NCBI GenBank assembly: GCA_049319825.1
Contig: JBMORT010000008.1
Span: 12,331 to 76,330 of the forward strand
Length of the DNA stretch: 64,000 nt
Origin: Patescibacteria group bacterium
Lineage (GTDB): Bacteria; Patescibacteriota; Patescibacteriia; UBA11705; DATKZF01
Reading direction: 5' to 3'
Of the stretch, positions 9,007 through 56,355 are shown one piece after another (the first letter of the stretch is position 1; each line of letters begins with the position of its first letter). The notes below the pieces were generated by a model. That model was not told where the DNA came from and did not search any database. It saw only the letters and a program-made list of their open reading frames with translations. The translations under genes and the position numbers were made by a program.

Positions 9007-9579
9007 ATGCAAATTCAGACATTATCGAGCAAATACGCTGCCGGCCGGCACTGGGACAACCATCCTAACATTTATGCCAAATATTTCGGAGATTTTTTAC
9101 GTCGAAATTTATTTAATGGTGAAATCGTCGATATCGGCTGCGGCTGCGGCCGAGATGTGGAAGCTCTGAATTCATTCGGCTATCAGACAATGGGAATTGA
9201 CAAATCACCGCAGGAAATCCGTTCGGCCAGAAACAAAAGGCCGCGATCGCTTTTCGCGGTAATGGACGCGGAGCGGCTGGCGTTTGCGGATGGGAGCATC
9301 GGCGCGTTTTATATGATTAATGTCATTCATTATGTTGACGCGGTAAAAGTCATTGCCGAAATGCATAGGACATTGAGATCGAGAGGGTTTTTGTTCATTC
9401 ATTTTAATCTATCGATCACCGATCAGAACGGCAATGTTGATTACCAGCTCTCCGAGCATGAAGTTTGGCGGCTGTTTCCAGCGTTTCGCGCCATGGGCCA
9501 AAAGTATTTTTCTCGATTCGACCCAATTCCTTTTCCACATCAGCACGACGTGCTGCAATTGATTTTCAAAAAGCTTTAA
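9007..9579 (+). CDS. class I SAM-dependent methyltransferase
   Basis: Motif I VDIGCGCGRDV and downstream motif II-like AVMDAERLAFADGS; GGAGGGGAG RBS. Confidence 0.7.
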   Translation: MQIQTLSSKYAAGRHWDNHPNIYAKYFGDFLRRNLFNGEIVDIGCGCGRDVEALNSFGYQTMGIDKSPQEIRSARNKRPRSLFAVMDAERLAFADGSIGAFYMINVIHYVDAVKVIAEMHRTLRSRGFLFIHFNLSITDQNGNVDYQLSEHEVWRLFPAFRAMGQKYFSRFDPIPFPHQHDVLQLIFKKL

Positions 9580-9678
9580 GGCGCCACCGCGTCTTTTTTT
9601 GATTTTTGGGAATAATTTGGTAAGATGAATTATCATGGATCACGTATCATGGATCATGTATCAATTTAATATTGTTAT

Positions 9679-9813
9679 GTTCCATGCTCCATGCTCCATG
9701 CTCCATGCTCCATGTTCCATGTTCCATGTTCCATGTTCCATGTTCCATGTTCCATGTTCCATGTTCCATGCTCCATGCTCCATGCTCCATGCTCCATGCT
9801 CCATGTTCCATGA
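9679..9813. repeat. perfect heptanucleotide tandem array (TCCATGC)4(TCCATGT)8(TCCATGC)5(TCCATGT)1 TCCATGA, 19 units, ending 10 nt before the mutS ATG
   Basis: Read directly; degenerate tcatggatca copies at 9640-9675 upstream of the array. Confidence 0.9.
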
Positions 9814-9823
9814 TTAATGACTT

Positions 9824-12379
9824 ATGCCCGAAACCCCAATGCTGAAACAATACAAAGAAATAAAAAAGAAGCACCAGGACGCAATCTTATTTTTTCGGCT
9901 GGGAGATTTTTATGAAATGTTCGGACCGGACGCCATTGAAGCCTCAAAAATTTTAAATATCACCTTGACTGCCAGAAATAAAGGCACGGAAAACGAAACT
10001 CCCATGTGCGGCGTGCCGTATCACGCGGTCGACGGCTACTTATCAAAGCTGACGCGGGCAGGTAAAAAAGTGGCTGTCTGCGAGCAGCTGTCAGATCCGA
10101 GCCTGCCCGGCATTGTGGAAAGAAAAGTAATCCGCACTGTCACTCCGGGCACGACTTTGGATGATAATATTTTGGACAATAAGGAAAATAATTATCTGGC
10201 TTCGCTGTCATTTTTAAAAAAGAGATGGGGCATGGCAGTGTGCGACCTGACTACCGGAGAATTCCAGGTCGGCGAATTCGAAGAGTTTGACATGCTGCAA
10301 AATGAAATTTTCAGGATCGCTCCGTCAGAAGTTCTGGTCACGCCGAGCCTTTTAAACAATTCGGATTTTCAAAATTTTTTTAGTAAATTAAAAAACGTCA
10401 ATTCGTTTCAGATCCCGAGCTTTGAGCAGCCGGCTGATTTTATTTTAAAGCATTTTAATCTGGCCGGCCTGGCCGGGTTTGGCATTGATCGGCTGGAGAT
10501 CGGCCAGACAGCGGCCGCGAATCTACTCGGATATTTGAAAGAAACACAGAAAACGGATTTGGAGCACATTACCAAAATGTCTTTGTACAATTCGCAAGAG
10601 TTTATGGCGCTCGATGAGGCGACGATCAGGAATCTGGAGCTTTACGGCACAGCGCAGGATTATCAGTACGAAGGCAGCTTGTTGTCGGTGATTGACCATA
10701 CTTCGACAGCCATGGGCGGCAGAAAGCTCAGGCGCTGGCTCAGGTATCCGCTGCTGAAAAAAGAGCCGATTGACCGGCGTTTGGAATCGGTGTCTGAGCT
10801 GGCTCGAGATATTGCCAGACAAGGTAAATTTATCGACACTTTGAAAAAAGTGGCTGACATGGAGCGCCTGCTCGGCCGCATCGGCTGCCAGCGCACGAAC
10901 GCGCGCGATTTGATCGCTTTGAAAAACTCTTTGCGCCAAGTGCCGAAGCTCAAGCAAATGCTGGCTGATTCCAAGGCTGAATTATTGCAAAAAATTTATG
11001 ATAATTTGGACGAGCAGATTGATTTGGTGCATTACCTTGAGCATGTGATCGAAGAAGAGCCGCCGGCGATCATCACTGAGGGCAACATGATAAAAAATGG
11101 ATTTAATAAAGAGCTTGATGAATTGCGCTCGATTTCCACCAATGCCAAAGACTGGATCAGCAAAATGCAGCAGCAGGAGATTAAAAGAACCGGAATCAAC
11201 ACCTTGAAAGTCAAATATAATAGAGTGTTCGGCTATTACATAGAAATCAGCAAGGCAAATTTAAATTCAGTGCCGGCTGATTACATTAGAAAGCAGACGC
11301 TGGTCAATGCCGAGCGCTTTATCACCCCGGAGCTTAAAGAATATGAAGAAAAAGTTTTGGGCGCTGAAGAAAAAATTAAAAAACTCGAGCAGGATTTATT
11401 TTTCGAAGCCAGGCAGGAGACGATCAAATATTTTCCTCAAATCCAAAATACGGCCGATCTGGTGGCTGAGCTCGACGCTTTGCTCGGGTTTGCCATATTG
11501 GCAGTTAAGGAAAATTATTCCAGGCCGGAAATTGTTCCGAAAAAAATTATTGAGATAAAAGACGGTCGGCATCCGGTGATTGAAAAATTTTCCGGCGAGT
11601 CTTTTGTGCCCAATGACGTTTATCTGGACCATGAGACGCATGAATTGATTCTGCTCACCGGCCCGAACATGAGCGGCAAGTCGAGTTACTTAAGACAGGT
11701 CGCGCTGATAGTTTTACTGGCGCAGATCGGCAGCTTCGTGCCTGCGGCTGAAGCGAAAATAGGTTTGGTTGACCGAATATTTACCAGAGTGGGCGCGGCT
11801 GATAATCTGATCCGCGGCCGGTCGACTTTTATGGTGGAAATGCAGGAAGCGGCCAATATTTTAAATAACGCGACGAAAAAAAGTTTGATAATACTCGACG
11901 AGCTCGGCAGAGGGACTTCAACTTATGATGGCGTGGGCATTGCCTGGGCAATAGTCGAATATATCCATAATAATATCGGCGCCTGCACATTGTTCGCCAC
12001 TCATTATCATGAGCTGATCGAAGTGATTGAAAATTTGAAGAAGGCGCAGAATTATTCAGTGGCGGTGACCGAAGACAATGGCAAAGTGGTTTTTTTGCGA
12101 AAAGTTTTAAAAGGCGGAGTCAATAAAAGCTATGGCATTGAAGTGGCCAAGCTGGCCGGCTTGCCGCCGGAAATCATTGACCGGGCCAATGAAGTTTTAA
12201 TCAAGCTGGAAAATGACAGGGAAGTGGACGTGGTGCGAAATTCCCAGCAGGCGGAAATGCTTTTTTTGCAAAAAGCCGAATCAGAGATTGAAAAAGACGT
12301 AAAAAATTTGGATTTGGATAATTTAACGCCTCTCGAGGCTTTGCAGCAATTGGTGGAATTTAAGAAAAAAATAAAATAA
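9824..12379 (+). CDS. mutS: DNA mismatch repair protein MutS
   Basis: N-terminal mismatch-binding domain (FFRLGDFYEMF), Walker A GPNMSGKS, DELGRGTS, 851 aa. Confidence 0.95.
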   Translation: MPETPMLKQYKEIKKKHQDAILFFRLGDFYEMFGPDAIEASKILNITLTARNKGTENETPMCGVPYHAVDGYLSKLTRAGKKVAVCEQLSDPSLPGIVERKVIRTVTPGTTLDDNILDNKENNYLASLSFLKKRWGMAVCDLTTGEFQVGEFEEFDMLQNEIFRIAPSEVLVTPSLLNNSDFQNFFSKLKNVNSFQIPSFEQPADFILKHFNLAGLAGFGIDRLEIGQTAAANLLGYLKETQKTDLEHITKMSLYNSQEFMALDEATIRNLELYGTAQDYQYEGSLLSVIDHTSTAMGGRKLRRWLRYPLLKKEPIDRRLESVSELARDIARQGKFIDTLKKVADMERLLGRIGCQRTNARDLIALKNSLRQVPKLKQMLADSKAELLQKIYDNLDEQIDLVHYLEHVIEEEPPAIITEGNMIKNGFNKELDELRSISTNAKDWISKMQQQEIKRTGINTLKVKYNRVFGYYIEISKANLNSVPADYIRKQTLVNAERFITPELKEYEEKVLGAEEKIKKLEQDLFFEARQETIKYFPQIQNTADLVAELDALLGFAILAVKENYSRPEIVPKKIIEIKDGRHPVIEKFSGESFVPNDVYLDHETHELILLTGPNMSGKSSYLRQVALIVLLAQIGSFVPAAEAKIGLVDRIFTRVGAADNLIRGRSTFMVEMQEAANILNNATKKSLIILDELGRGTSTYDGVGIAWAIVEYIHNNIGACTLFATHYHELIEVIENLKKAQNYSVAVTEDNGKVVFLRKVLKGGVNKSYGIEVAKLAGLPPEIIDRANEVLIKLENDREVDVVRNSQQAEMLFLQKAESEIEKDVKNLDLDNLTPLEALQQLVEFKKKIK

Positions 12380-12382
12380 GGG

Positions 12383-12493
12383 CAGGGCGCGGGGCGGGCA
12401 TACGCCCGCGTAGGGACAGAATATCTGTCCCTACCGCAGGCAGAGGTAAAGCCGAATTCGGATTCGGCTTTACCTCTGCCTGGCCGCGCCCTG
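12383..12493. repeat. GC-rich cloverleaf palindromic element, copy 1 (outer 10-bp stem plus three perfect hairpins of 6, 11 and 21 bp), followed by a T6 run
   Basis: cagggcgcgg...ccgcgccctg outer stem; hairpins gcgggc-atac-gcccgc, gtagggacaga-ata-tctgtccctac and caggcagaggtaaagccgaat-tcgg-attcggctttacctctgcctg. Confidence 0.85.
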
Positions 12494-12542
12494 TTTTTTG
12501 CGTAATTTAGGGGATTTTTTCGATTTCAAGATCCACCAGCCC

Positions 12543-12571
12543 TTGACAAAATCATCATTATTTGATATACT
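12543..12571 (+). promoter_or_regulatory. sigma70-type promoter (TTGACA, 17-bp spacer, TATACT) firing into the GC-rich island
   Basis: cccTTGACAaaatcatcattatttgaTATACTgcataca; consensus -35, optimal spacer, near-consensus -10. Confidence 0.45.
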
Positions 12572-12577
12572 GCATAC

Positions 12578-13358
12578 ACTGAACCTTGAATTACATTTCC
12601 CCGCGGTTTTGGATCGCCCCGACCTTCATACCAGAAAATTGATGGGGCGGAACTTCACATTACCCGCGGGTTTCTTAGATGATAAACCCAAAGCCATAGC
12701 CTGCCGCGTCAAATCGGTCGGGCGAGTGAGGACGCGCGGATGTAGTTGCTGAGCCTCCGTGGCAGAGGGTTTTCATAGGGATGCTAGCTCTCCCTGACCA
12801 TACGGCTGCGTTTCGCGGTTGGAAGGGGTGCATCTGCACGATGCCACTGCACTTCGATGGTCGAAACTAGCTTTCCTTTGGTGCCAACGCCTTCTGGCGT
12901 TTGCATGGGGCTTTGGCAGCTCCTTAGATAACCGGCAAGAGGGCCTTCTTGTCGGGGTAAATCTGAGAGCTTCCAGGGCTCTCAGAGATGGTAAGCTTCG
13001 GCGAGCCATTCATGCGCCACCTCCAGTCCCATCGCCGGAAAAAATGCGCGGACAGGAAGGCTGCCGGTGAAAGTCGCGAGGGGGGACGGCTCTCTCCACG
13101 CGTCATGTGAGCTGGCAGAGTTAAGCCACACGATTGCCGCAGATACTCCGGATCTGCGGAGCCGCTTTCGTGAGGTGAGCGCGATGCCATGATCGCTGTT
13201 TGGCGACTGGCTGAGTGCTACTGGTTCCCTCGGGAGGAATCGCCTGGGGGAATTTACGTCCGGAGGGTAGGCCCACCCAAAGGACACAAAAAAAACGCGC
13301 AATGCGCGTTAAGATAAACGAGACGTTTCTTCACAGAGGCGTCTCGATTTCGTTTAAA
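12578..13358 (+). ncRNA. candidate structured non-coding RNA of unassigned class (~780 nt, ~60% GC, no credible ORF), or non-coding cargo of an inserted element
   Basis: Sharp GC jump from ~40% to ~60%. Only short, mutually overlapping ORFs on both strands. A dedicated promoter lies upstream and a hairpin plus U-rich tail at 13322-13358. Many local helices, e.g. CCCGCGG...CCGCGGG at 12600-12670. Confidence 0.35.
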
Positions 13359-13362
13359 AAAA

Positions 13363-13473
13363 CCGGGCGCGGGGCGGGCATACGCCCGCGTAGGGACAGA
13401 ATATCTGTCCCTACCGCAGGCAGAGGTAAAGCCGAATTCGGATTCGGCTTTACCTCTGCCTGGCCGCGCCCTG
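13363..13473. repeat. GC-rich cloverleaf palindromic element, copy 2 (identical to copy 1 except the first bases of the outer arm)
   Basis: Same three hairpins as 12383-12493, located 58 bp upstream of mutL. Confidence 0.85.
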
Positions 13474-13530
13474 CCTGCTTGTCGCACTCGTCTTGCTTGT
13501 CGCACTTTTTTCTGATAAGGTGTAATCGCT

Positions 13531-15390
13531 ATGGGAATCATAAAAGTATTGCCACAAGACATCATTAACCAAATCGCTGCCGGCGAAGTGATCGAGCGAC
13601 CGTCTTCTGTCGTTAAAGAATTGGTGGAGAACAGCCTGGACGCCGGCGCTTCCACCATTGAAATAGAGATTAAAAACGGCGGCCTGAATTTAATTAAGGT
13701 TATCGACAATGGCAGCGGTATGTCCGGAGAAGACGCACTGCTGAGCGTTAAGCAGCATGCCACCAGTAAGATTTCATTGATCGATGATCTGTTCAGGATC
13801 AGCTCTTTTGGATTTCGAGGTGAAGCCCTCGCCTCGATCGCTTCTGTTTCAAAATTTTCTCTCCAAACAAAAGACCAGGATTCGATTTCTGGAAATCGAA
13901 TAACAATTTATAATCAGGAAGTTAGATCAGCGTCCGTCGGCTGCCCCCAGGGCACTTGCGTTTCGGTTGAAGATCTGTTTTATAATGTGCCGGCCAGGAA
14001 AAAATATCTAAAGACGGTCAGCACCGAATTTAATCACATATTGGAATTGTTTACCAGGTTCGCTTTAATTCACGGGAAAGTCAGCTGGAAATTAATTCAT
14101 AACGGTAAAACTGTGTTTCATTTACCGTCAACACCCAAATGGCTCGAGCGTATTGAGTTGCTTTTGGGGGAGCGGATTGCGCAAAATGTGTTCGGCCTCA
14201 GAATAAACATGCTAGATGTTGAGTTTAACGGTTATCTGGGGAAGCCTCAAATCGCTTCAAAGTCGCGAGCCAACCAATTTTTATACATTAACAAGCGCCC
14301 GGTCAACGAGCATATTATTTCAAAAAGCGTTAAAGATGCTTTTCAAACTTTGATTCCCCGCGACTATTATCCCGTTTACTTGATGAATTTGCGCATAGAT
14401 CCATTCAAGCTTGACGTTAATGTCCATCCGCGAAAACTCGAGGTGCGTTTTTCAGAGCCGCAAACCGTGTATCGCAGCGTTTATCGAGCGGTTAGCGCCA
14501 CACTGGATAAAAATAATTTGGTAAAAACGATTTATACTCCCGCTCCGATTGAACAGGCGGAGAATCAGCTGGAAAAAACCGGTTTTTTCGACATTAAAAG
14601 CGCGCTTGAATCAAAAAGCAGGGATTTGAAAATGCCAAGTCCCGGACAGATTAAGCGGGCAGTTGATTTCAACCATTCCATGTACGCGCTGCCTAAAAGC
14701 GCTCGTCGGCTGATGCCCGGCGATAAGATCACCGTAAGTTCAGCAGAACCAATGGCAGTCAAATTTCAGCCGGTGGAATTTAAACAGGAAAAAATAGAAT
14801 TGGTTCGCGAAGAAGATGTTTGGAAAATCATCGGCCAAATTAAAAATTCATATATAATAGTGGAAACCGGCGAAGGATTAAAAATTATCGACCAGCACGC
14901 CGCCTCGGAGCGCGTCCAGTTTGAAAAAATCATCAGCTCATGGAAAACCGATAAGCTGCGGTCTCAAAGTTTGTTGCTGCCGGTCTTGATCGATATGTCA
15001 TCGCTCGAAATGGCTAAAATTCATAAATATCAGTCTCAGCTCAATCGATTGGGTTTTTCCATTGATGTGTTTGGAGAAAACACCGTTAAAATAAATGCGG
15101 TCCCGGCGCTGTTAAAAAATTCCGATATCCAAAAGTTGTTTTTTGAAGTTGCGGCGGAGCTTGATGATCGCATCAATAACGGCGAATTGACCGAACCAAT
15201 AAGAAAAATATTAAACATCTTGTCGTGTCGCAGCGCTGTTAAATTTGGCGACGATCTAACACTCGACGAAATGAAGTCGCTGATCGCGCAGCTTCGATCC
15301 TTGGATAATCAATACACCTGCGTCCATGGTCGGCCGGCCATAATCGATATGAGTTATGGCGAACTGGAAAAATTGTTCAGCCGCAAGTAA
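13531..15390 (+). CDS. mutL: DNA mismatch repair protein MutL
   Basis: GHKL ATPase N-terminus IAAGEVIERPSSVVKELVENSLDAG, DNGSGM; 619 aa. Confidence 0.95.
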   Translation: MGIIKVLPQDIINQIAAGEVIERPSSVVKELVENSLDAGASTIEIEIKNGGLNLIKVIDNGSGMSGEDALLSVKQHATSKISLIDDLFRISSFGFRGEALASIASVSKFSLQTKDQDSISGNRITIYNQEVRSASVGCPQGTCVSVEDLFYNVPARKKYLKTVSTEFNHILELFTRFALIHGKVSWKLIHNGKTVFHLPSTPKWLERIELLLGERIAQNVFGLRINMLDVEFNGYLGKPQIASKSRANQFLYINKRPVNEHIISKSVKDAFQTLIPRDYYPVYLMNLRIDPFKLDVNVHPRKLEVRFSEPQTVYRSVYRAVSATLDKNNLVKTIYTPAPIEQAENQLEKTGFFDIKSALESKSRDLKMPSPGQIKRAVDFNHSMYALPKSARRLMPGDKITVSSAEPMAVKFQPVEFKQEKIELVREEDVWKIIGQIKNSYIIVETGEGLKIIDQHAASERVQFEKIISSWKTDKLRSQSLLLPVLIDMSSLEMAKIHKYQSQLNRLGFSIDVFGENTVKINAVPALLKNSDIQKLFFEVAAELDDRINNGELTEPIRKILNILSCRSAVKFGDDLTLDEMKSLIAQLRSLDNQYTCVHGRPAIIDMSYGELEKLFSRK

Positions 15391-16559: not shown

Positions 16560-16673
16560 ATGAAAGTTAAAGCTTCGGTAAAAAAGATTTGCAAAGACTG
16601 TAAAATAGTCGTGCGGCAAAGGAGAGTCCACGTAATATGTAAAAATCCTAAGCATAAGCAAAGGCAAGGATAA
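16560..16673 (+). CDS. rpmJ: 50S ribosomal protein L36 (37 aa; below the ORF-track cutoff)
   Basis: [37 protein letters not shown] with CxxC...C...H zinc ribbon; canonical position between infA and rpsM. Confidence 0.85.
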
Positions 16674-16766
16674 TTTTTGTCATGGATCAAGGGGCATGAA
16701 TCATGAATCAGCTGAAATGATGTTATATGATATGTGCTCCATGATATATGATATGTGAAGAAAAAT

Positions 16767-17156
16767 ATGGCCAGAATCGCAGGCGTCAACATTCCTAACG
16801 AAAAAAGAGTCGAAATCGCTTTGACTTATATTTATGGAATTGGTCGCAAATATTCCAGCGATATTTTAAAAATCACCAAGATCGACGCCAACACGCGGGT
16901 TAAAGATTTAACGGAAGATCAGGTTAATCGGCTGCGAGAAGTGGTGGAAAAACAGTTCCGCGTCGAAGGAGATTTGAAAAGAGATGTTTTATCCAATATC
17001 AAGCGTTACAAGGATATTAAATGTTGGCGGGGGTATCGGCACAGCCGACGCTTGCCGGTGCGCGGACAAAGAACTAAAACCAATTCCAGAACTGTTCGCG
17101 GCAATAAGCGCGTAACCATGGGCAGCGGTAAAAAGCCGCCAGCACAAAAAACTTAA
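16767..17156 (+). CDS. rpsM: 30S ribosomal protein S13 (likely start MARIAGV at 16767; ORF track starts at 16755)
   Basis: [26 protein letters not shown]. Confidence 0.9.
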
Positions 17157-23910: not shown

Positions 23911-23939
23911 TGACACATTGATTTTCGTTTGGTATCATA
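23911..23939 (+). promoter_or_regulatory. candidate promoter (TTGACA, 17 bp, TATCAT) followed by a ~140-nt leader upstream of rplJ (possible L10 autoregulatory leader)
   Basis: TTGACAcattgattttcgtttggTATCAT; the long leader contains GGCCTCGCCGGCTTAAAAAACGACCTTGCC. Confidence 0.3.
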
Positions 23940-24085
23940 TACTCACATACAAATACCGCAGACAGCAAGGGCCTCGCCGGCTTAAAAAACGACCTTGCCT
24001 AGGTAAAGCAAAATTTTGCTATTTTTCGCGGTATTTTCAATGCCGTTTTTTATTTAATTATTTTATTAAGATATCTATAATTTAT

Positions 24086-31987: not shown

Positions 31988-32100
31988 TTGTTTGGAAAAT
32001 AGAAAATAGTAATGGAAATTTGCAAATAGAAATTGGTTTTAAATACTATTTTCCACTTTCTATTTTCTAATACCAATTTCCAATTTCTAAACAACCAGTT
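31988..32100. repeat. ~110-bp AT-rich imperfect palindrome (tagaaattggttgtttggaaaatagaaaatag ... ctattttctaataccaatttccaatttctaaacaaccagtttcta)
   Basis: Inverted repeat read directly; lies between the Ldt gene and the tsaB fragment. Confidence 0.5.
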
Positions 32101-35538: not shown

Positions 35539-35771
35539 AGGAGTTATTATGGCAGGATTTATTGAATTCTGCTTTTTTATCCACAAAAATGGGGATAAGT
35601 CAGGCGGAAAGTTAAAAGTGAAAAGTGAAAAGTCAAAAGTTTTCAATGCACTTTTTATCCACAGAAATGATATTCACATAAAAAAAGCTTAAATATATGG
35701 CGTTTTTTTGTTTTTGCACTGGTGTTGAATAATGGTTGATAGGATAATATAAGTGGGGTATAATGGAGTTA

Positions 35772-35812
35772 GTGGAAATTTTTGTGGGGAAAAGTGGGGA
35801 AAATCTGGCGGG
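35772..35812 (+). promoter_or_regulatory. candidate MraZ operator: GTGG(G) direct repeats with 10-11-bp periodicity (aGTGGaaatttttGTGGGgaaaaGTGGGgaaaatcTGGCGGG)
   Basis: Four G-rich direct repeats ~215-255 bp upstream of mraZ; an additional AAAGTGA AAAGTGA AAAGTCA triple repeat at 35618-35645. Confidence 0.3.
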
Positions 35813-35968
35813 AAGTTAACTGAGCTATAATTAATTTCCCGCCAGGTTCACTTTATTTTTGTTACAAGATAGTACCCTTCGACTCCCCCTCGACTTGCTC
35901 GGGGTCGCTCAGTGCAGGCAAGATTGGAAATTGATTATTATTAAGTATTAAAGATGCTAGTTTCTTGT

Positions 35969-36027
35969 TCCATGCTCCATGCTCCATGCTCCATGCTCCA
36001 TGCTCCATGTTACATGATACATGACAT
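35969..36027. repeat. heptanucleotide array (TCCATGC)5 TCCATGT TACATGA TACATGA running directly into the mraZ start codon (catATG)
   Basis: Read directly; same unit as the mutS-upstream array. Confidence 0.85.
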
Positions 36028-37481: not shown

Positions 37482-37565
37482 GTGAATTTCCAGGCGAAAA
37501 CACCAAAAACAAAAATAAAATTGATACATGTTTCATGATCCATGATCCGTGTTACATGACCAAAT

Positions 37566-41344: not shown

Positions 41345-42277
41345 ATGAATCACAAAATAATTTTAGGAATTGCCGGGGGAATAGTGATTGCCGCGCTGGG
41401 GTTTGGAGTTTATTTGGCTGTCACCAATTTTTCGATTATTAAAAATATTGACTTGGGTCAAGACGCGGATGAGGGAAAAATCGAAAATTTCGACGAGTGC
41501 GCGGCCGCGGGCAATCCGGTGATGGAAAGCTATCCGCGCCAGTGCCGCACGGCCGACGGCCGGCTTTTTGTGGAAGAGATTGACGAGGATGAGTGGGAAT
41601 TTGATTCTGAGTGGGGAGTCGATTACGAGGTCCGTGGCTGCGATGAGGAAAAGCTTCGCGATCCGCTGGCGCAAGAAAAAAAAGACAGAATAGCCGACAT
41701 GACCATTGACGGCAATTATGTAAATTTCACGCATTATTTGAATTATGTTTGCTGCGCTGATATTGAAGTGGAAATAATGGATACAGTCGTCGAAGATGAT
41801 AAAACGACAATTAAATTGCTTGAATCAAATACCGGTGAAATGTGCCGCTGCGTCTGCGATTATGAAGTCGACATCACTCTCGGCTATCTTGATCCCTTCA
41901 AATATACAGTTGAAATGTACGGCGTCGAATTCGAAGGCGAACAAGAGCCGCAGCTTCTCTGGTCAAGAGATTTTCAAATCATTGAATCAGAAGAAGACGG
42001 AGCCGGCATCGGCCTGGCGAATCCGGCTTCAGCGTATTGCCAGGATTGGGGCGGCACTGTGGATATTCGGCATTTTATCGACGGGGATAAGGGATTCTGC
42101 CTGTTTGAGGACGGTTCTGAATGCGAAGAATGGGCATTTTATCGTGATGAATGCTGGGACGGAGAGGTTTTTTGCAAAGATTTATGCGGTGACGGCCAGT
42201 GCCGGGAAATAGTCTGTGAAGCGGTCGGGTGTCCGTGCTCGGAGACAGCCGAATCGTGCCCTGCAGATTGCCAATAA
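41345..42277 (+). CDS. membrane-anchored acidic Cys-rich protein with a DUF333-like (putative hemolysin) C-terminal domain
   Basis: TM ILGIAGGIVIAALGFGVYLAV; ANPASAYCQDWGGTVDI...GFCLFEDGSECEEWAFYRDEC matches the NPAS-YC / C-F-DGS-C-EW-F-R-C pattern of DUF333; 23 Cys. Confidence 0.5.
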   Translation: MNHKIILGIAGGIVIAALGFGVYLAVTNFSIIKNIDLGQDADEGKIENFDECAAAGNPVMESYPRQCRTADGRLFVEEIDEDEWEFDSEWGVDYEVRGCDEEKLRDPLAQEKKDRIADMTIDGNYVNFTHYLNYVCCADIEVEIMDTVVEDDKTTIKLLESNTGEMCRCVCDYEVDITLGYLDPFKYTVEMYGVEFEGEQEPQLLWSRDFQIIESEEDGAGIGLANPASAYCQDWGGTVDIRHFIDGDKGFCLFEDGSECEEWAFYRDECWDGEVFCKDLCGDGQCREIVCEAVGCPCSETAESCPADCQ

Positions 42278-42622
42278 CGTAAAATAACGCAAAATAACGC
42301 CAAAATAACGCAACATAACGCCAAAATAACGCAATATAACGCAACATAACGCCAAAATAACGCAATATAACGCAACATAACGCCAATATAACGCAACATA
42401 ACGCAAAATAACGCAATATAACGCAACATAACGCAAAATAACGCCAAAATAACGCAATATAACGCCAAAATAACGCAATATAACGCAACATAACGCCAAA
42501 ATAACGCAATATAACGCAACATAACGCCAATATAACGCAAAATAACGCAATATAACGCAACATAACGCAAAATAACGCCAAAATAACGCAATATAACGCC
42601 AACATAACGCATATAACGCCCG
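42278..42622. repeat. degenerate minisatellite, ~33 units of 10/11 bp (AAAATAACGCA / AAAATAACGCCA / ATATAACGCAAC), starting at the stop codon of the preceding gene
   Basis: Read directly; mean period ~10.5 bp. Confidence 0.9.
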
Positions 42623-56253: not shown

Positions 56254-56355
56254 CAATTTAATATTTTGTTAATAAATAATTAAAATAACAGCGGATTATG
56301 GAGATGGGATGGAATAAATGTTCCATGTTTCATGTTCCATGATTCATGACCAAAT

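Follow-up and report, generated by a model that had tools for sequence, protein, structure and literature searches.

A heptamer array before mutS in a Patescibacteria bacterium, probably an expanded member of a clade-specific family of leader repeats

Introduction

What does a long and nearly invariant tandem repeat do when it lies directly before a mismatch-repair gene? The question is raised by a 64,000-nt stretch of a metagenome-assembled genome (MAG) of a Patescibacteria group bacterium (GCA_049319825.1, contig JBMORT010000008.1, positions 12,331 to 76,330 of the forward strand; hereafter the window), in which 19 heptamers of the type TCCATGN lead up to the start codon of mutS. An earlier note on this DNA proposed that the array may be a mutator contingency locus, in which a change in unit number could switch mutS expression. 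The present analysis points to another answer: the array is probably an extreme expansion within a family of xxCATGx microsatellites that is specific to the clade and occupies gene leaders, with at most a graded tuning of mutS translation. A full-text search of the literature returned nothing on tandem repeats in the leaders of Patescibacteria, or the Candidate Phyla Radiation (CPR), or on leader repeats at mutS.

The array and the gene behind it

The two elements at issue are the following.

9681-9813, plus strand: main array of 19 TCCATGN units, each with one AUG (sequence parse and Tandem Repeats Finder, TRF)
9824-12379, plus strand: mutS, 851 amino acids (list of open reading frames (ORFs), Pfam, homologues, and NCBI annotation)

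Read from 5' to 3', the units follow one another head to tail as four TCCATGC, eight TCCATGT, five TCCATGC, one TCCATGT, and one TCCATGA, with complete identity outside the seventh base of the units (114/114 positions). TRF assigns the array a period of 7, 19.4 copies, and a score of 209, and a three-unit pattern finds 21 matches in the window against 0.00 expected from 100 shuffles. It is the longest heptamer array in the window and in the roughly 0.6 Mb of CPR loci covered by the comparison. The array is separated from the mutS ATG at 9824 by a 10-nt gap, TTAATGACTT, and its terminal TCCATGA unit carries a TGA at 9811–9813. The earlier note had described 19 perfect TCCATG[C/T] heptamers in blocks of C4, T8, C5, and T1 that end 10 nt before the mutS ATG; the number, the blocks, and the distance are borne out by the sequence parse. 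However, the array begins at 9681, so that the former start of 9679 was 2 nt early, and the last unit is an additional TCCATGA, which ends in A.

The identification of the downstream gene as mutS also holds. The encoded protein is complete, with all five Pfam MutS domains, the first of which starts at residue 4; its best homologues are Patescibacteria MutS proteins, and the NCBI annotation of the source MAG lists the same 851-aa product (MFZ5365328.1) on a contig of 77 kb.

The array is no assembly artefact, since its 3' junction is reproduced by a Logan contig (L001) whose MutS is 100% identical. This contig stops inside the array because it derives from a k=31 assembly and the pure blocks exceed 31 nt; for the count of exactly 19 units, the MAG assembly is the sole source. 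Exact-protein look-ups with the window MutS, the upstream methyltransferase, and MraZ retrieved no other contigs of the same species, and one scan each of a metagenome collection and a genome collection, in which highly conserved peptides served as query patterns, yielded only relatives of at most 80% identity.

Anatomy of the leader

The region between the preceding gene and mutS is composed of the following elements.

9007-9579: upstream methyltransferase gene (Pfam Methyltransf_11)
9578-9605, plus strand: terminator-like hairpin and T-run, stem AAGGCGCCACCGCGTCTT then TTTTTGATTT, which closes the methyltransferase gene
9599-9626, plus strand: putative mutS promoter, with a -35-like TTGATT (9599-9604), a 16-nt spacer, and an extended -10 element TGGTAAGAT (9618-9626)
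9632-9659, plus strand: type A heptamers ATCATGG ATCACGT ATCATGG ATCATGT, in the register of the main array (TRF period 7 and 14)
9660-9680, plus strand: spacer of three degenerate units, ATCAATT TAATATT GTTATGT, near-identical in the related species L168
9814-9827, plus strand: two degenerate end units, TTAATGA and CTTATGC, which hold in-frame stops and the mutS start codon

Orthologous leaders were compared in five related species whose MutS proteins are 75–80% identical to that of the window (L002–L005 together with L009, L006, L007, L167, and L168). A TG[A/G]TAA[G/T]AT block behind the T-run is kept in all six orthologous leaders despite their differing upstream genes, and because of this conservation the extended -10 block is taken as the likely mutS promoter, which would make the sequence from about 9633 onward a transcribed leader. 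The array thus sits between the putative promoter and the start codon, downstream of the conserved -10 element, in keeping with the earlier placement of the repeats in the promoter or 5' untranslated region.

When the leader is cut into 7-nt units anchored on the start codon, the whole of it falls into one heptamer register: tggtaag atgaatt ATCATGG atcacgt ATCATGG ATCATGT atcaatt taatatt GTTATGT (TCCATGN)x19 TTAATGA CTTATGC. The mutS start codon itself (9824–9826) is the ATG of the degenerate 21st unit, as 9684 + 7 x 20 = 9824. Start codons in phase with the heptamers are also found in L002 (ATTATGC), L168 (CGTATGC), and L007.

None of the motifs GGAG, GAGG, and AGGA occurs at positions -20 to -4 of mutS, and the earlier note was right that a Shine-Dalgarno sequence is missing. 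The absence is unremarkable, however, because only 10 of the 44 window genes carry one of these motifs in that interval; the idea that it is a peculiarity of mutS was accordingly rejected, the other 34 genes setting the norm in this genome. Base pairing between the 3' tail of 16S rRNA (taken as GGAUCA) and either UCCAUG or UGAUCC was considered and dropped. Rfam models gave only chance-level matches of the miRNA type between 9560 and 9900 (E of at least 0.17), and in a search of the whole window no match at gathering score fell in the leader; the sole Rfam family in the window is an L10_leader at 23938–24061 (58.6 bits; gathering score 44).

Since CATG is a palindrome, the array was earlier described as quasi-self-complementary and able to extrude secondary structure. 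CATG is indeed self-complementary, and the centroid RNA fold keeps 9629–9639 paired with 9806–9818. The minimum free energy, however, is no better than that of dinucleotide shuffles, either for the leader as RNA (z = -0.97; 28 of 200 shuffles fold as well) or for the array as DNA (z = -0.71; 55 of 200), and helices within the array reach 4 bp at most. A structure-forming element, be it a hairpin, a cruciform, or slipped DNA, is therefore disfavoured to the point of being scarcely credible.

Orthologous mutS leaders in related species

The number of TCCATGN-type units differs widely among the six species: 19 in the window, about four in L168, four in the L002 species, one in L007, and none in L167 or L006. 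The leader of L168, whose MutS is 75% identical to that of the window, has the same architecture and register, with about six type A units (ATCAYRN), the spacer ATCAACT TAATATT GTTATGT, and then TCCATGC TCCATGT TCCATGA TTCATGC CGTATGC. The -10 box and the ATG are 197 nt apart in the window and 99 nt apart in L168; each value is 1 modulo 7, and their difference of 98 nt equals 14 units. The L002 species reads TCCATGT TTCATGC TCCATGT TCCATGA ATTATGC, L007 has only TTTCATGA ATTATGC, the L167 leader consists of type A units only, and L006 carries GGATTTA-like heptamers in place of TCCATGN. Homologues of the type A units are present in the L002 leader as well as in that of L167.

The TCCATGC–TCCATGT segment of L168 corresponds to 18 units in the window, in the pure blocks C4, T8, C5, and T1. 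Such a pure-block pattern would be the signature of recent local slippage, that is, of a species-specific expansion by whole units. As read from these leaders, the heptamer periodicity is a trait of the clade, and the units and their number turn over.

The L168 locus also illustrates how the repeats affect gene annotation. The MutS of the window is recorded as 851 aa in NCBI and as 846 aa in Logan; identical L168 DNA is on record with a MutS of 851 aa and of 858 aa, the latter with its start placed on an in-frame ATG of the array; a further member of their 90% cluster has 846 aa. The 858-aa variant (P0243) was considered as an allele with a different array and rejected, as the DNA is identical and the start call differs.

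The same repeat family at other genes

Heptamers built around CATG are not confined to mutS, as shown by the following arrays.

35969-36024, plus strand: second TCCATGN array, TCCATGC x5, TCCATGT, TACATGA x2, before mraZ
37522-37559, plus strand: ATACATG TTTCATG ATCCATG ATCCGTG TTACATG, downstream of rsmH and 6 nt before the gene in the ftsL position (37566)
56318-56349, plus strand: TTCCATG TTTCATG TTCCATG ATTCATG, 6 nt before an SPFH/Band 7 gene (56356)
16679-16760, plus strand: looser CATG/ATG heptamers in the rpsM spacer, 9 nt before the rpsM ATG (16768)

The five CATG arrays of the window all end 3–11 nt before a start codon (5/5). The mraZ array follows the conserved mraZ promoter with its GTGGGG boxes and ends 3 nt before the ATG (36028), and a CATATGT unit holds the start codon in phase. 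Outside the main array, 15 pairs of CATG are spaced by 7 nt, compared with about 1–2 pairs at other spacings. Among 173 mutS and mraZ loci fetched by protein homology, three CATG motifs at 7-nt spacing occur in the clade of the window only; seven further loci with this arrangement are viral contigs that were retrieved with that very pattern. The unit is thus not specific to mutS, being found also before rpsM, mraZ, the SPFH gene, and the ftsL-position gene. At mutS, mraZ, and a handful of genes in this Patescibacteria lineage, heptamers make up the entire predicted 5' leaders.

The presence of these arrays varies between sister species, in which the mraZ promoter and the GTGGGG boxes are kept and the CATG array is absent or reduced to a single unit; the ftsL-position array is likewise absent or vestigial. 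Other 7–10-nt arrays are found in many intergenic regions, some of them adjoining stop codons, and include AACAATC arrays at 1313 and 27538. Arrays of 7–10-nt units reach a density of 0.36 per kb in the window, compared with 0.15 per kb for other CPR loci and 0.09 per kb for other phyla. The 150 nt upstream of mutS contain an array in five of six close relatives, in 6 of 34 other CPR loci, and in 9 of 115 other loci.

These distributions bear on the possibility that the array is a neutral or nearly neutral microsatellite, thrown up by a lineage prone to 7–10-nt slippage in non-coding DNA and devoid of a meaningful effect on the MutS level. Arrays of many units spread throughout the intergenic DNA, at stop as well as start codons, including a 10-mer array of 347 nt at 42273–42619; arrays come and go at orthologous genes between sister species; and TCCATGY arrays turn up sporadically in unrelated viral contigs. 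On the other hand, the CATG-type arrays adjoin start codons in every case (3–11 nt, 5/5), even in regions as long as the 489 nt before mraZ, the CATG-bearing rpsM spacer is conserved in three species, and the roughly 24 upstream AUGs would be unlikely to be fully silent in a leader that lacks a Shine-Dalgarno sequence. A neutral origin without consequence for MutS is possible, although on the unlikely side.

The recurrence of one unit at five unlinked leaders, always near the start codon, could also be explained by CATG heptamers that bind a single DNA- or RNA-binding factor and so co-regulate mutS, mraZ, the ftsL-position gene, the SPFH gene, and rpsM. However, this gene set is not conserved, with sister species lacking the arrays at mraZ and the ftsL-position gene; the arrays comprise anything between 1 and 19 units, their 7-bp period is out of step with the helical repeat of DNA, and no candidate factor was found. 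An operator array of this kind appears very improbable.

Several observations on individual members of the family stand apart from these considerations. The rpsM spacer is conserved in sequence between the window (16673–16767), L168 (16361–16432), and L006 (16628–16672); it has no Rfam match at gathering score and possibly represents a regulatory leader of the rpsM-rpsK-rpsD-rpoA operon. In the mraZ promoter region (35750–35830), GTGGGG boxes with a spacing of about 10 nt surround a TATAAT box, an arrangement conserved in L169, L171, and L172; the region resembles a MraZ operator. A separate heptamer array, AAAGTGA x4.7, is located at 35608–35640. The viral (TCCATGY)n arrays comprise 4–10 units and occur in seven unrelated IMG/VR contigs (L174–L180) with a GC content of 0.35–0.71, at apparently non-coding positions and in no common context; L174 and L175 share flanks.

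Reading frames, stops, and upstream AUGs

The central question is whether a change in unit number could act as a switch. A contingency locus in the usual sense has a pure tandem tract long enough for frequent slippage, which the 19 units provide, and a position at which the unit number can alter expression, as is the case between the putative -10 element (9618–9626) and the ATG at 9824. Such loci are typically, though not strictly, restricted to surface, restriction-modification, or similar genes, a pattern from which the present repeats depart by preceding mraZ, rpsM, the SPFH gene, and the ftsL-position gene.

The binary mechanisms known from such loci are not evident here. All three frames are open across the array and meet their stops at 9811 (frame 1), at 9815 and 9818 (the mutS frame), and at 9843 (frame 0, open to 9845). 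Two stops in the mutS frame, TAA at 9815–9817 and TGA at 9818–9820, part the array from the gene, and they exclude a frame-based on/off switch of MutS of the neuO type, in which the repeat lies within the ORF. The tract is not located between the -35 and -10 elements either, but downstream of the latter, so that the architecture for the on/off switch of mutS put forward in the earlier note is missing.

That model, in which slippage turns mutS on and off and generates reversible mutator subpopulations, can draw on a long pure tract directly before a mismatch-repair gene, on the rank of this tract as the longest heptamer array in the window and in about 0.6 Mb of CPR loci, and on copy numbers that differ between species. 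Besides the missing binary mechanism and the same repeats before mraZ, rpsM, and other housekeeping genes, it must contend with the substrate range of the repair system. The loops that bacterial MutS can process measure about 4 nt at most. Because the loops formed by heptamers exceed this range, the array would slip regardless of the MutS level, and its slippage would thus lack feedback on that level. A dedicated contingency locus is, in our judgement, improbable.

The upstream AUGs permit a subtler translational device. The mutS leader contains 24 of them, and one leader-spanning ORF deserves mention.

9635-9817, plus strand: hypothetical upstream ORF of 60 codons spanning the leader (ORF list; predicted only)

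This ORF begins at the 5'-most AUG (9635, 9 nt past the -10 box) and ends 6 nt before the mutS AUG. When 18–21 units are simulated, its end shifts between -6, -10, and +22, where the base that follows the stop is counted from the A of the mutS ATG. Ribosomes could accordingly start at array AUGs or at 9635, with the unit number modulo 3 picking the stop; termination either ahead of the mutS AUG, by 6 or 10 nt, or 19 nt beyond it would then give three states of coupling or occlusion. In its general form, this idea treats start-codon-proximal AUG heptamers as a hitherto undescribed, heritably tunable translation control for genes without a Shine-Dalgarno sequence, in which the units act as decoy or loading AUGs, their count (including its value modulo 3) sets the ends of upstream ORFs, and slippage reversibly modulates mismatch repair, so that mutS becomes a mutator rheostat or a three-state switch in a bacterium with a very small genome.

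The open frames and the simulated shifts fit such a device. So do a CATGA unit that terminates the array, or stands close to its 3' end, in the seven leaders read, and the phase shared by array and start codon in mraZ and in four mutS orthologues. However, any modulo-3 effect would be blurred by the AUGs in all frames of the array, and conservation of the AUG at 9635 does not extend to L002 or L006. Ribosomes that re-initiate at the ATG at 9817 would enter an out-of-frame ORF, and in the leaders of 37566, 56356, rpsM, and L167 the start codon does not share the phase of the array. The three-state device at mutS is therefore improbable, and the general proposal equally so.

Proposed mechanism and its limits

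The interpretation favoured here, a leader microsatellite with at most graded influence on mutS translation, would operate as follows. Whole 7-nt units would be gained and lost by replication slippage, both in the origin of the array and in its presumed ongoing change; the earlier description of a slippage-prone simple-sequence repeat suits the 19 pure units, and on the general behaviour of long perfect tracts these should still gain and lose copies. The array would be transcribed as part of the mutS leader. As every unit would lengthen a leader devoid of a Shine-Dalgarno sequence by 7 nt and bring in one more out-of-context AUG, a graded effect is expected: the unit number most likely tunes mutS translation gradually, and probably downward, in the manner of a rheostat rather than an on/off switch. 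The effect may nonetheless be small or negligible, and the expansion need not be adaptive.

Several points weigh against this interpretation. The direction and the size of the translational effect are purely inferred. A strict sigma-70 consensus scan called no promoter at the mutS leader, and the putative promoter is assigned by cross-species conservation. Copy-number change, which the earlier note had anticipated, is seen among the related species (0, 0, 1, 4, about 4, and 19 units, with the window and L168 differing in multiples of 7) but not within sister species, where the short arrays are uniform (the L002 type in five records, the L168 type in three); three to four impure units are not expected to slip, however, so that this uniformity says little about a pure tract of 19. 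The MAG contig runs uninterrupted through the array, which speaks against extreme heterogeneity. Sister species manage with 0–4 units, and any effect must therefore be dispensable. Finally, the recurrence of the unit at unlinked genes might instead be due to a binding factor that they have in common.

Comparison with known repeat systems

In Haemophilus influenzae, the promoters P2 and P1 of hmw1A and hmw2A are separated by (ATCTTTC)n tracts, and more units lead to less transcript and less protein (PMC8262952). The mutS array resembles these tracts in its tandem 7-bp units, in a copy number of a dozen to two dozen or more, and in its location downstream of a promoter (P2 in hmw) and upstream of the coding sequence. 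However, hmw encodes a surface adhesin of a pathogen, its variation within strains is documented, and its tract is flanked by two promoters, whereas the mutS array belongs to a housekeeping gene of an uncultured CPR host, has AUG-bearing units in phase with the start codon, and shares its unit with several genes. In its presumed working mode, the array is most like such heptanucleotide repeats of leaders or promoters, and since hmw output falls with unit number, graded control is an expectation with precedent.

As a genomic phenomenon, the xxCATGx family appears most like the short tandemly repeated repetitive (STRR) heptamers of cyanobacteria. STRR units recur at many loci and are lineage-specific; TCCATGY is not known to be one of their consensus sequences. 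They are mostly 7-bp tandem units in non-coding regions, of unknown function, for which a part in transcript stability, or in translational coupling, has been proposed (PMC2670836). Both families form 7-nt tandem arrays in non-coding DNA with the same unit at several dispersed loci (here 9681, 35969, 37522, 56318, and 16679). STRR sequences differ in phylum and in unit sequence and are not reported to run into a start codon, whereas the CATG units of this Patescibacteria MAG are tied to positions 3–11 nt before start codons. The xxCATGx family is thus STRR-like and hmw-like, but AUG-bearing, in phase with start codons, and hosted by a CPR bacterium.

Other heptamer systems share less with the mutS array. 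In Vibrio cholerae, TTTTGAT heptad repeats of variable number upstream of the -35 element of ctxAB are bound by ToxR and affect expression; tandem heptamers are common to both, but the mutS array lies downstream of the -10 box and hence not in the position of a ToxR-type operator. Reversible mismatch-repair mutators arise through 6-bp repeats inside mutL in Salmonella and E. coli, and SpyCIM1, between mutS and mutL of Streptococcus pyogenes, acts as a reversible mutator switch. The shared concept is an unstable sequence that modulates mismatch repair at mutS–mutL; however, these elements alter the MutL protein or interrupt the operon, and neither is a leader repeat. In neuO of E. coli K1, a heptanucleotide tract lies inside the coding sequence, and the unit number modulo 3 changes the frame; the heptamer unit is shared, but the mutS array is cut off from its gene by two in-frame stops. 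NeuO is described as phase-variable in one report (PMC13001214).

Other repeats and conserved elements of the window

The spacer between mutS (end 12379) and mutL (13531–15390) holds a perfect direct repeat of 109 nt (12385–12493 and 13365–13473), the copies of which flank about 870 nt; each contains two strong hairpins, one with a 21-bp stem. The Logan contig L001 confirms copy 1 over its first 35 nt. The repeat could mark an insertion or duplication that split the mutS–mutL pair. The spacer (12380–13530) has a GC content of 0.55–0.63, compared with 0.43 for the window, and two stretches, about 12893–12992 and 13252–13358, share 85–90% DNA identity with the L006 spacer, one of them also with that of L167. 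As tblastn matches of the spacer fall in several frames and on both strands, its conservation is at the nucleotide rather than the protein level, and no Pfam or Rfam match was found in it. The spacer is a candidate for an undescribed conserved non-coding RNA.

The largest tandem array of the window is the 347-nt array at 42273–42619, composed of about 34 copies of the 10-mer AATAACGCAA with higher-order periods of 31 and 134 nt; it extends from the stop codon of a DUF333 gene to 223 nt before an Na+/H+ exchanger gene. Inverted pairs of arrays also occur, with GAAAATA units followed by CTATTTT units at 31995–32032 and 32046–32087, and similar pairs are present upstream of mutS in L011 (GTTTTAG, then CTAAAAC units) and L008. 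Such inverted heptamer arrays could pair as long imperfect hairpins.

Implications

At a practical level, arrays of this kind break k=31 assemblies and shift gene-start calls, so that one MutS may be recorded as 846, 851, or 858 aa. Whatever their function, clade-specific STRR-like heptamers that appear to build entire 5' leaders and to swallow the start codon are a feature of this Patescibacteria lineage. If the unit number does tune MutS, an episymbiotic, genome-reduced bacterium would possess a simple heritable dial for its mutation rate, and such a dial, if real, would bear on the quick evolution of CPR lineages.

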